This document shows, piece by piece, positions 24,001 through 27,000 of a DNA stretch of 64,000 nucleotides. The stretch lies in assembly GCA_030693145.1 (NCBI GenBank), contig JAUYBI010000041.1:10228-74227 (forward strand), in the 5' to 3' direction. Source of the stretch: Candidatus Omnitrophota bacterium (lineage in GTDB: Bacteria; Omnitrophota; Gorgyraeia; Gygaellales; Profunditerraquicolaceae). Made by a program: the position numbers and the translations under genes. How positions within the stretch are numbered: position 1 is the stretch's first letter; the number at the start of each line of letters is the position of its first letter. The notes under the pieces were generated by a model. That model worked only from the letters and a program-made list of their open reading frames with translations. It was not told the DNA's origin and did not search any database.

Positions 24001-27000
24001 CTGATGCCGCTACTGAAGTGGCAGAACATGAAGTAGATGCATTTTTTAGAAAAGTTAGTGAATATTTAATAGTAAGGCCTGCGGGAGATAATGTGACTAG
24101 GAGTGAGGACGGCGGCTCCTTTGAGCAGAAAGCAGTTGTTGGTCTGTTGAAGATTAATCCAGCCACTACTACCGCAGCTTGGAAAAAGCTAGAGGAATTT
24201 TCTAGCGTAATGAAAGAGCAGCGCATGAGCGATATGTTCGCTGACCCGCGGCGTTTTGATAAATATTCCATTCGCTTTGAGGATATGCTTGTGGATTATT
24301 CCAAGAACCGGATTAATCAAGAGGTAATAGATACTCTGCTTAGTTTAGCAGGAGAAGTTGGCCTTAAAAATGCAATCGAAGCGATGTTTACCGGCGTCAA
24401 GATTAATGAAACTGAAAACCGCGCTGTTTTGCATACTGCCCTGAGGAACCAATCCAATACACCTGTTTACGTTGATGGTAAAGATGTGATGCCGGCAGTG
24501 AATCGAGTTTTAGGGCAAATGAATGAGTTTTCGGCCAAGGTTATTTCCGGAGAGTGGAAAGGCTACACCGGCAAGGCTATCACAGATATCGTAAATATCG
24601 GTATCGGCGGTTCGGATTTAGGGCCGGTAATGATCACCGAAGCTTTAAAAGCTTATGCCGCGCGTAAGGATTTAAGGGTGCACTTTGTCTCTAATGTGGA
24701 TGGAACGCACATCGCGGAAACGCTAAACGGCCTTAATCCTGAGACCACACTTTTTATCATTGCCTCCAAGACCTTCACTACGCAGGAGACTATGACCAAC
24801 GCTAATACAGCCAAGGCTTGGTTCTTGAAAAACGCGGTAAACAAAGAACATCTAAAACTGCATTTTGTAGCGGTTTCCACAGCAGAAGAATTAGTTAAAG
24901 AATTCGGAATTGACACGGCCAATATGTTTGAATTCTGGGATTGGGTAGGCGGGCGTTATTCTTCCTGGTCGGCAATTGGCTTGTCAATCGCCTGCTATAT
25001 CGGTTTTGATAATTTTAAAGAGCTGTTCTCCGGCGCTCATGCTATGGATCTTCATTTCAGGAATACGCCGTTTGAGAGAAATATTCCGGTGATCCTAGCA
25101 CTTTTAGGTATTTGGTACAATAATTTCTTTAATGCCCAGTCGCATGTCCTCTTACCTTACGATCAGCACCTGCATCGTTTTGCCGCGTATTTTCAGCAGG
25201 GGGATATGGAATCAAACGGCAAGAATGTGGGTAGAGACGGCAAGCCAGTAGATTATCAGACAGGGCCGGTTGTCTGGGGCGAGCCGGGCACCAACGGTCA
25301 GCATGCCTTTTATCAATTGCTGCATCAAGGTACGAAATTGATCCCCGCGGATTTCATCGCCTTTGCCCAAAGGAGCGCTCAAAAAGAGTTCGATAAAGAC
25401 TATGATTTGAGGGAGCGTTTAGACATGCATCATAAAATATTCCTTTCCAATTTCTTTGCCCAGACCGAGGCCTTGATGCAGGGGAAGTCTACCGAAGAAG
25501 TCAAGAAAGATTTTGAAAAAGAAAATGCCAAGCGCAAAGAAAAGGGCCAGCTGGAATTAACCAATGAAGAAATATCCCGGCTTACGCCTTTTAAAGTTTT
25601 TGAAGGTAACCGCCCGACCAATTCTATCTTGGTTAAGAAACTTACCCCTCGCACGCTCGGTGTGCTCATCGCGATGTATGAGCATAAGATTTTCGTGCAG
25701 GGCGTAATCTGGAATATCTACAGTTTTGACCAGTGGGGTGTTGAGCTCGGCAAAAAACTTGCTAACAATATCCTGCCTCAGCTTGAGCCCGGAGTTGATG
25801 CCTCCAAACATGATTCCTCCACAACCGGACTTATTAATGCTTATAAGGATATGCTGGATGGTTCTAAGATTAATGTCCTTGATGAGGCATCTGGAGTTGA
25901 GAAGAAAGACGGCGGCTCCTTTGATGGTGGTTCACTTAGTAACAGCCTTGATAACTTTGCCGCCAATTTAATCGAATCTTTAGAAGAGAGAGCAAGGCAG
26001 GCTGGCTATTCTGTGGATAAAGATACAAAATTCTTTATCCTTGTGGGCGGCAATGTAAAAACCTCTCCTTCTTTTAAAATATTTAACCATCTTTTAAAGC
26101 TTGCCCAAGAGAATATAGTTTACCTTCCTTATGAAATCTCTTCAGAAAAGGAATTAGAAGAATTAACTCAGCTATTAAGAACCTGCCCGCGTTTGGTCGA
26201 GTTAGTAATAAGCGATCCTTATAAAGTAAGTGGGATTAAATATTTGGATGAGCTCTCAGTATTAGCAGAAAGAGCCCATGCAGTTAACAATATCGTTTTA
26301 AAGGATAATAAATTGTTTGGCTCTATGTTTGACGGTGTTGCATGGGTATATTGGTGGAAGATTATCTTAGGCCAAGGCTTGGATAATAAGAAGATTATTC
26401 ATTTGGGCGCAGGTGGAGTAGCAAGAGCCTTTGCCGCAGCAGTTGCTGAAGAGGCATCCAATGTGAAACTTGTTTTTACCGATACTAACGAAGAGCGTCT
26501 TTATGCTCTAAGAAATATTATAGAATCCTGGGGTAAGGATATTAAAGTTAAAATAATAAAAGTAGCGCCTGATCAAGAGTCCGGCGATTTAAATAAAGAG
26601 CTGACGGATGCTGATATTATTATTAATGGCACAGGGTTAGGGAAAAACAAAGGCAATATTTACGCTTATCCCAAGTTGGATTATACGAAATTAAAAGGAA
26701 AGGTTTGCATAGATTGGAATTATCGTCCAGCGGCAAAGAATCTTTTCTTAAAGTATTCCGAAGATAATGGAGCAACAATTTATAATGCTTTAGGATTTTT
26801 AATCACTGGTTTTTATTATACCTTCCACGCTATTTTGGATAGAAGAGGGGTTTTTGATTATAATAAGTTATTAAGTTTTGCAAAAGAAGACCCGATATTC
26901 AAAGAAGCTGCTGAGGTGGATTTTGAAGGCGATATAAGGTTTATTAAGGCAAAAGAAAGGTTAGCTGATTGGTTGCTTACTCTAAATAAGATGTCTCCGG

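Follow-up and report, generated by a model that had tools for sequence, protein, structure and literature searches.

A 17-nt direct repeat around a phosphoglucose isomerase module of a giant Omnitrophota gene is probably a scar of junction-anchored copying

The 64,000-nt stretch of contig JAUYBI010000041.1 from a Candidatus Omnitrophota bacterium analyzed here (the window) is occupied by part of one giant gene, in which an exact 17-nt direct repeat flanks a module encoding a phosphoglucose isomerase (PGI). The + frame from base 3 (3-63998) has no stop in its 21,332 codons and runs past both ends of the window; the five other frames carry 712-2294 stops each. Only five other open reading frames (ORFs) reach 150 amino acids (aa), all of them within the giant ORF on the opposite strand. 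At least 25 distinct families are detected when the entire 21,332-aa frame is scanned against Pfam. The first part of the ORF contains B12/radical SAM, DegT aminotransferase, APS kinase, PHP domains, CofD, and phosphoglucomutase (PGM). These are followed by two PGI-type modules (PGI-A and PGI-B), a block of shikimate-dehydrogenase-like (SDH-like) enzyme, 6-phosphogluconate dehydrogenase (6PGD), and 6-phosphogluconolactonase (6PGL), and a third PGI-type module (PGI-C). After PGI-C come PRK, ARMT1, hexokinase, methyltransferases, histidine phosphatase, amidohydrolase, an OMPdecase-like (HPS/OMPdecase-like) domain, SIS, and HEAT repeats. In size and content, with one ORF of no less than 10,000 aa and many distinct enzyme families, the gene fits the giant multi-enzyme proteins of Omnitrophota. 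It strings whole enzymes together through short linkers with the tripeptide DGG, and it is at least 21,332 codons long.

The module enclosed by the repeat, PGI-B, consists of a core (24144-25847) between two linkers; all modules and repeats given here and below are on the + strand. The core is predicted to be a full-length PGI, that is, a complete bacterial-type glucose-6-phosphate isomerase, by profile, alignment, and intact, conserved signature segments. In particular, PF00342 matches at E=1.7e-288 with 957 bits (cut-off 22) over profile positions 1-486 of 486, in a match that spans PGI-B and the start of PGI-C. PGI-B residues 13-580 align to residues 26-570 of 3hjb (E=1e-237), and residues 15-580 align to residues 3-545 of the 549 of 3nbu. 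The N-terminal linker SFEQKAVVG (24117-24143) lies upstream of the natural PGI N-terminus, and the C-terminal linker (25869-25907) has 13 residues. Both are missing from the paralogue PGI-C (29484-31307), which is bounded by GACGGCGGC junctions and in which DGG comes straight after ...DMLDGSK. PGI-B and PGI-C share 78% amino-acid identity, with a synonymous divergence (dS) of 0.76 and a ratio of nonsynonymous to synonymous divergence (dN/dS) of 0.15, indicating purifying selection.

The window contains the 17-nt sequence GACGGCGGCTCCTTTGA at two places only (24108-24124 and 25908-25924, on the + strand in both cases), even when up to two mismatches are allowed; none of 100 shuffles contains two matches. 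Within 23800-26300 it exceeds every other exact direct repeat, the runner-up being 10 nt. The two copies are spaced by 1800 nt, or 600 codons, corresponding to DGG plus 597 codons, and the 1783 nt between them encode only the PGI and its linkers. An earlier sequence-only reading of the window had reported this repeat, and all of its coordinates and sequences prove correct. Its claim that the repeats exactly flank a complete 597-codon PGI is borne out by PF00342 and by the alignment to solved PGIs. The left copy comprises the native DGG junction of PGI-B (24108-24116), the S and F codons, and the first two bases of a Glu codon. The right copy is followed by a second DGG, as that reading had also stated: the sequence at 25908-25931 is GAC GGC GGC TCC TTT GAT GGT GGT and encodes DGGSFDGG.

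Eight of the 17 nt are the junction octamer GACGGCGG, and the ninth base is a common variant at junctions. The chance probability of the additional 9-nt match is ~1e-5 for one pair of junctions; it rises to ~5e-4 when the 52 pairs of neighbouring junctions are considered and to ~0.013 for the full set of 1378 pairs. Even under selection for the peptide DGGSF(D/E) at the two sites, identical synonymous codons would arise with p ~0.03 (hand estimate from codon usage).

The right copy can be divided into an added piece and a native piece. The SDH-like enzyme that follows PGI-B is encoded separately as a 432-aa gene, P0241, in GCA_024449875.1, and the natural N-terminus of P0241 aligns immediately after the DGG junction GATGGTGGT at 25923-25931. 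The free-standing enzyme therefore fixes GATGGTGGT (25923) as the native junction of the following module and DGGSF (25908-25922) as the added piece. The added piece, GACGGCGGCTCCTTT, is identical at all 15 positions to 24108-24122, the five codons with which module B starts, and the remaining two bases of the right copy (25923-25924, GA) are common with the native junction. At the breakpoints, GA is thus shared on the right and the octamers match at 6/8 positions. The paralogue PGI-C has plain junctions at both ends and no extended flanking repeat.

The tripeptide DGG marks the joints of the whole gene. It occurs 53 times against 5.8 expected (9.2-fold) and is the most over-represented tripeptide, the next being 3.5-fold over-represented. 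None of the 53 (for example, 21807, 24108, 29484, 31308, and 34449) lies within the 28 Pfam envelopes (P ~7e-7). DGG lies 0-13 residues beyond the natural ends of enzymes that relatives encode as free-standing proteins: 13 residues past the C-terminus of PGI-A, ~12 before and ~13 after the core of PGI-B, and directly at the N-terminus of the SDH-like enzyme. Conservation beyond the octamer is almost nil, except that K/R is enriched at -1 and -2; Ser is the second commonest residue after DGG (7/53). The octamer GACGGCGG, whose synonymous recoding is written GATGGAGG, occurs 30 times against 0.55 expected, always on the + strand and in frame. Within DGG, Asp is encoded by GAC in 68% of cases versus 23% gene-wide, and the first Gly by GGC in 70% versus 31.5%. 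We considered this preference as proof of a nucleotide-level signal, but codon context weakens it. GAC encodes 48% of the Asp residues that precede a Gly, and GGC encodes 55% of the first residues of Gly-Gly pairs; after this control only a residual excess of GACGGC is left (30/53 versus ~14 expected, p=3e-6). All 30 octamers share one reading frame, which points to the peptide level, and a Chi-like DNA signal was set aside on this ground. A Shine-Dalgarno-like or re-initiation role was also rejected, as GGCGG rather than GGAGG dominates and start codons do not come after the junctions. We conclude that DGG is primarily a peptide-level boundary signal. Upstream of DGG, the canonical double-glycine leader pattern is not seen. 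The DGG joints may be proteolytic processing sites, the most plausible role given that C39 (double-glycine) peptidase domains are reported in Omnitrophota giant proteins (bioRxiv 10.1101/2023.11.21.568195; bioRxiv 10.64898/2026.06.07.730766). In the window, the ends of the gene lying beyond it, Pfam scans give no match to C39, S8, or any other peptidase domain or to SecA.

The arrangement at PGI-B is not isolated in the gene. The sequence-only reading had named, among the findings that would count against its interpretation, a lack of repeats of similar length around any other module; such repeats do flank another module. A 15-nt exact repeat, GATGGAGGTATTAAT (42396-42410 and 43134-43148, within 42396-43148), surrounds a 246-codon module, and its second copy leads into a 25-residue mini-module. 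This mini-module at 43134 copies the C-terminal end of the module ending at 45536, plus its junction. In a third example, a ~100-nt repeat, 91% identical, starts at DGG junctions (12519-12620 and 15753-15854) and brackets a multi-module block (12519-15854). Its first copy stops where GAT meets GGAGGA, giving a 31-residue mini-module, and its second copy continues into a 956-residue module. In a fourth, GACGGCGGC is the exact start of a 35-nt repeat with 86% identity (45987-46021 and 47178-47212) that likewise brackets a multi-module block (45987-47212), with the first copy cut to a 14-residue mini-module that is followed by DGG. Mini-modules are copies of their neighbours: m4 corresponds to the N-terminus of m8 (90%), m32 to the N-terminus of m35, and m27 to the C-terminus of m30, and m39 is a methyltransferase fragment. 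The truncation of m4 joins the next junction at a common GAT, just as DGG-SF-D runs into GG at PGI-B. The short inter-DGG pieces are thus truncated module copies, SF being the shortest. The sequence-only reading had taken SF for an empty 2-codon module; it is better read in this way, the DGG at 25923 being native to the next module. A 64-residue piece between two DGG (50142-50333) contains the N-terminal S-adenosylmethionine-binding motif of a methyltransferase alone and ends in DRSARL-DGG; it seems to be what remains of a truncated enzyme, still in frame.

The footprints are local and differ in age. The two longest rightward extensions among the 1378 junction pairs are both between adjacent junctions (24108/25908 and 42396/43134), and the most similar junction-proximal sequences are always 1-5 junctions apart, indicating local events. 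Footprint identities range from 100% to 86%, which, together with the dS of 0.76 between PGI-B and PGI-C, suggests that the process is continuing and that the 17-nt scar is recent in origin.

Copying is also seen away from the junctions. PGI-C carries an internal partial duplication (30212-30265 and 30329-30382; 43/54 identical, 117 nt apart), and the duplicated segment (A)NMFEFWDWV(S/G)GRYSS adds ~20 extra residues to the predicted enzyme. In the comparison of PGI-B with PGI-C (24848-25741 versus 30266-31156), exact common tracts of 59, 43, 35, 35, 33, and 33 nt occur despite the overall dS of 0.76. Identity is 87-91% in the central part and 66-75% at the ends, with ~80% overall at the DNA level. 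This pattern suggests gene conversion between the two modules. The repeat-unit-repeat inside PGI-C and the exact tracts of up to 59 nt indicate that local copying and gene conversion are general rather than the work of a junction-specific machinery.

The right copy is identical to its source, abuts a native junction, and has counterparts of different ages elsewhere in the gene. From these observations, we infer the direction of the event and its molecular route: the 17-nt repeat is probably a neutral in-frame scar of junction-anchored copying. An identical source lies nearby, the copy is in frame, the breakpoints have microhomology, and there are three further junction-anchored cases and one intramodule case. 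The ancestral arrangement would have been ...PGI-B...EKK-DGG(GATGGTGGT)-SLSN..., and the corresponding allele would lack the 15 nt, with GAGAAGAAA joined directly to GATGGTGGTTCA. Fifteen nt from the start of module B (GACGGCGGCTCCTTT) would then have been copied in directly 5' of the junction native to the following module, creating the 17-nt repeat and DGG-SF-DGG. One conceivable route is templated insertion, in which a nascent strand or broken end would switch to the nearby junction and copy a few codons. The newly copied octamer would then anneal to the next junction octamer (6/8), the other breakpoint having no more than GA as microhomology. In the other route, module B would have been duplicated in tandem by octamer misalignment, and nearly all of the second copy would have been lost afterwards. 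The two routes give the same product, and we cannot tell them apart. The scar would persist because it is in frame and in a permissive linker, and it does nothing itself. Slippage between direct repeats can later delete the intervening stretch precisely, here 1.8 kb. Passive slippage between the 17-nt copies could thus occasionally delete PGI-B precisely and in frame. The product would read ...AGTGAG, GACGGCGGCTCCTTTGA, and TGGTGGTTCA in direct succession with 1800 nt gone, and the two other PGI-type modules would stay.

Several points weigh against a copying scar. Neither the ancestral allele lacking the 15 nt nor the deletion allele is found, the collections searched holding no close relative, so that direction and mechanism are drawn from a single sequence. 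The upstream module has no relative in genome or metagenome contig collections, and the exact 23-mer across the tandem junction is missing from the same collections. One breakpoint has only 2 nt of microhomology. The coincidence of the breakpoints with the junctions could reflect selection on survivors rather than mechanism. The octamer is partly a product of generic codon-context bias, which leaves its role as an annealing site putative. Finally, 5/53 junctions (SFE, SFD, SLS, SLD, and SIF) have Ser after DGG, then a hydrophobic and in most cases an acidic residue. Peptide-level selection therefore accounts for part of the similarity, leaving only three free synonymous sites as evidence for copying (p ~0.03).

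That last point, taken to its limit, becomes an account without any copying, in which both junctions independently carry a favoured DGG-S-hydrophobic-acidic peptide and their codon identity is coincidental. Five of the 53 junctions indeed match DGG-S-[FLI]-x (x being D, E, or S in four), Ser is frequent after DGG as noted above, and the octamer and in part the ninth base are common to many junctions. However, the other DGG-S junctions use AGT, TCG, TCA, or AGC, and TCC TTT, with its rare Ser codon, occurs only in the adjacent pair. The ~0.03 for identical synonymous choices has to be combined with the requirement that the two sites be neighbours. Moreover, selection on the peptide does not predict that nearby junctions are systematically the most alike, nor does it explain a DGG-SF piece without a module of its own. 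We regard this account as unlikely. The DGG-SF-DGG element could instead be selected as such, for example as a doubled processing site that releases PGI-B, both ends being recognized by the same factor. Such a role would fit the position of DGG at module termini, its constant placement 46-59 residues behind signal-peptide-like N-termini in a related lineage, and the other close DGG pairs 14-31 residues apart. C39 (double-glycine) and S8 peptidase domains and autoproteolysis have also been proposed for Omnitrophota giants (bioRxiv 10.1101/2023.11.21.568195). It is nevertheless very unlikely, as no other DGG pair is just 2 residues apart, the remaining short pieces between DGG are recognizable as truncated module copies and not designed spacers, and selection on a peptide would not demand identical synonymous codons. 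The Pfam scans of the window find no peptidase domain, and cleavage at DGG remains putative.

The sequence-only reading had favoured insertion or excision of a cassette by recombination between junctions. In this model, PGI-B would be a mobile cassette that moves in and out by site-specific or homologous recombination at the 17-nt core, and DGG-SF-DGG would be an empty docking site. Direct repeats do flank exactly one complete enzyme module and start exactly at the junction motif, and a second module is flanked alike by 15 nt. The same enzyme types occur in other contexts, as in another Omnitrophota lineage, where P0168 has DGG on either side (residues 59 and 690), and GACGGCGG exceeds its codon-context expectation (30/53 versus ~14, p=3e-6). 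However, four junctions folded as single-stranded DNA (z +0.15 to +1.41) do no better than shuffles, the boundaries of PGI-B have no inverted repeats, and Pfam scans of the 64-kb window find no recombinase or integrase family, although one could be encoded outside the window. The repeat lengths vary from 15 to ~100 nt, and a repeat-unit-repeat is also present inside PGI-C, away from any junction. Homology of 8-17 nt would not support efficient RecA-mediated exchange. By its dS of 0.76 from its paralogue, PGI-B has long been resident, and it is under purifying selection; the model also requires DGG-SF-DGG to exist beforehand, so that the question is only shifted. Overall, the cassette model has a low probability. 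A rearrangement footprint tied to junctions, as the sequence-only reading had proposed, is upheld and recurs at three more places, but a system of cassette insertion and excision, for which there is no att-like site or recombinase, is not. In a related view, GACGGCGG would have a dual role as a peptide processing site and as a DNA recombination or annealing hotspot for in-frame module turnover, making the gene an "in-frame cassette array". We consider this improbable; if true, the 17-nt repeat and the near-empty DGG-SF-DGG would be a snapshot of module turnover. A transposon with target-site duplication was rejected, as neither terminal inverted repeats nor a transposase are present and the variable repeat lengths (15, 17, ~35, and ~100 nt) misfit a fixed target-site duplication. 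An assembly or sequencing artefact, such as a chimeric join or 15 nt falsely inserted where a motif recurs, deserves mention because paralogous modules could confuse an assembler. It is highly implausible, however: the frame is open through 21,332 codons, this site included, 17 nt is below the k-mers or overlaps that assemblers usually use, the DNA identity of PGI-B and PGI-C is just ~80%, and comparable footprints of different ages exist elsewhere in the gene.

PGI-B lies between two other enzyme modules, and three PGI-type modules occur within 10 kb of the giant gene. PGI-A (21807-24107) is a divergent PGI-family enzyme whose homologues are free-standing proteins of ~603-607 aa in Omnitrophota metagenome-assembled genomes (MAGs). 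Its natural C-terminus (...EYL), placed by the homologues P0123 and P0128, is 13 residues ahead of the DGG at 24108. PGI-A has no Pfam match at E<=1e-3, and its more distant homologues are the PGI half of bifunctional transaldolase/PGI proteins. The module downstream of PGI-B (25932-29483) contains the SDH-like enzyme, 6PGD, and a 6PGL/glucosamine-6-phosphate-isomerase-like enzyme, fused without DGG. In particular, the joint between the SDH-like enzyme and 6PGD (~27150-27230, aa ~9060-9085) is an SDSSSSF linker, indicating that some fusion points bypass DGG and that a second, Ser-rich joint type coexists with it. For three modules of the gene, protein searches place the nearest homologues in Omnitrophica/Omnitrophota MAGs, with best identities of 78%, 63%, and 63% and always in another context; the window itself contains no marker gene.

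Membrane-helix-like segments occur in the final third of the frame only. A hydropathy scan detects ten strongly hydrophobic segments at 41463-63270 (aa 13,821-21,090), one at residue ~13,821 and nine after residue 15,258, and none in the enzyme-rich first 41 kb. Several of them come straight after DGG and a basic stretch, as at 51903. Within the HEAT-repeat region, 52566-53116 is a diverged tandem array with a period of ~114 nt (38 residues) and 61-71% identity. A search for an RNA-level element at the junctions is negative, with no Rfam match anywhere in the window.

Five junctions in 48718-54607 (48738, 50334, 50925, 51903, and 54597) form a family with ~25-31 nt upstream of the octamer in common. 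The common stretch encodes (G/D)RS(A/T)R(L/F)-DGG with near-identical GC-rich codons, and the modules between are unrelated. These patches could be an extended peptide signal or a result of homogenization among nearby junctions. They resemble joint sequences in two other loci, GRSIK-DGG in L004 and RSExR in L001. L001 (GCA_964499085.1, contig CAZCJV010000007.1, 1-8857) encodes an Omnitrophota-like PGI-containing multi-module protein in which the joint RSExR recurs 12 times within 8.8 kb, its codons varying freely. In other fragments, SSP/SSS motifs are found at joints. The RSExR joints indicate that boundary motifs appear to be lineage-specific peptides. L004 (JGI 3300010353, Ga0116236_10000047, 4231-22844) is part of a Velamenicoccus-like contig and lies beside a 39,470-aa gene. 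It comprises four consecutive multi-enzyme glycolytic genes, encoding FBA+PFK+GAPDH, a PGI-like protein, PPDK, and TIM+PGK+enolase. Each has a signal-peptide-like hydrophobic N-terminus and DNLRPxxAK, then K-DGG at residue 46-59, and three of the four share a conserved C-terminal domain of ~80 residues ending in ...EDTLNKI. The PGI-A-like P0168 of L004 is bracketed by DGG at residues 59 and 690.

The gene resembles giant genes already described in the phylum. West-Roberts et al. 2023 (bioRxiv 10.1101/2023.11.21.568195) reported PGI and PGM domains in "Archaeovorins" and proposed proteolytic processing, with the cleavage points unknown. Nielsen & Lui 2026 (bioRxiv 10.64898/2026.06.07.730766) defined a "multi-enzyme metabolic cluster" class of Omnitrophota giants. 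One of these two papers states that missing information on cleavage points blocked its analysis. Like such giants, the present ORF exceeds 20,000 codons, is tiled by PGM, PGI, hexokinase, radical SAM, methyltransferases, and HEAT, and repeats Pfam families. It differs in that its modules are set off by DGG/GACGGCGG and that small repeat scars lie at the joints; a search through the text of both papers gave no recurrent junction motif, linker, or junction-anchored repeat.

The scar itself has parallels in other systems. Templated micro-insertion and direct-repeat slippage, by RecA-independent replication slippage or by microhomology-mediated template switching, likewise leave a short identical in-frame copy with breakpoint microhomology (here GA and 6/8 of the octamer). 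The present case differs in being anchored on a recurrent in-frame motif, repeatedly at the module boundaries of one gene, with a mechanism inferred from one sequence. Integron cassettes are also discrete units bounded by a recurring short sequence, and the direct repeats at one unit and the adjoining near-empty site recall them. Here, however, the units are in-frame pieces of one ORF, there is no attC-like fold and no integrase in 64 kb, and the repeat length is variable. Polyproteins cut at Gly-Gly, such as polyubiquitin, double-glycine leader/C39 substrates, and viral GG-cleaved proteins, share the many in-frame units with a GG-ending motif at natural termini, and their arrays evolve by unequal exchange between unit boundaries. 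Unlike them, the present chain joins unrelated enzymes, has no canonical leader pattern, and contains no peptidase domain found in the window, and its cleavage is putative. The feature is best read as a known type of scar, a microhomology-mediated or templated duplication, inside an Omnitrophota-type giant multi-enzyme gene.

Giant Omnitrophota genes are already known, and the scar bears on how they are built and on whether and where their products are cut. If the joints are merely linkers, the repeat would be an ordinary mutational scar in an unusual gene. The scar and its sister footprints point to a gene remodelled through local copying and truncation, with the recurring DGG joint as anchor, and the DGG joints at natural enzyme ends are candidate places where the products might be cut.

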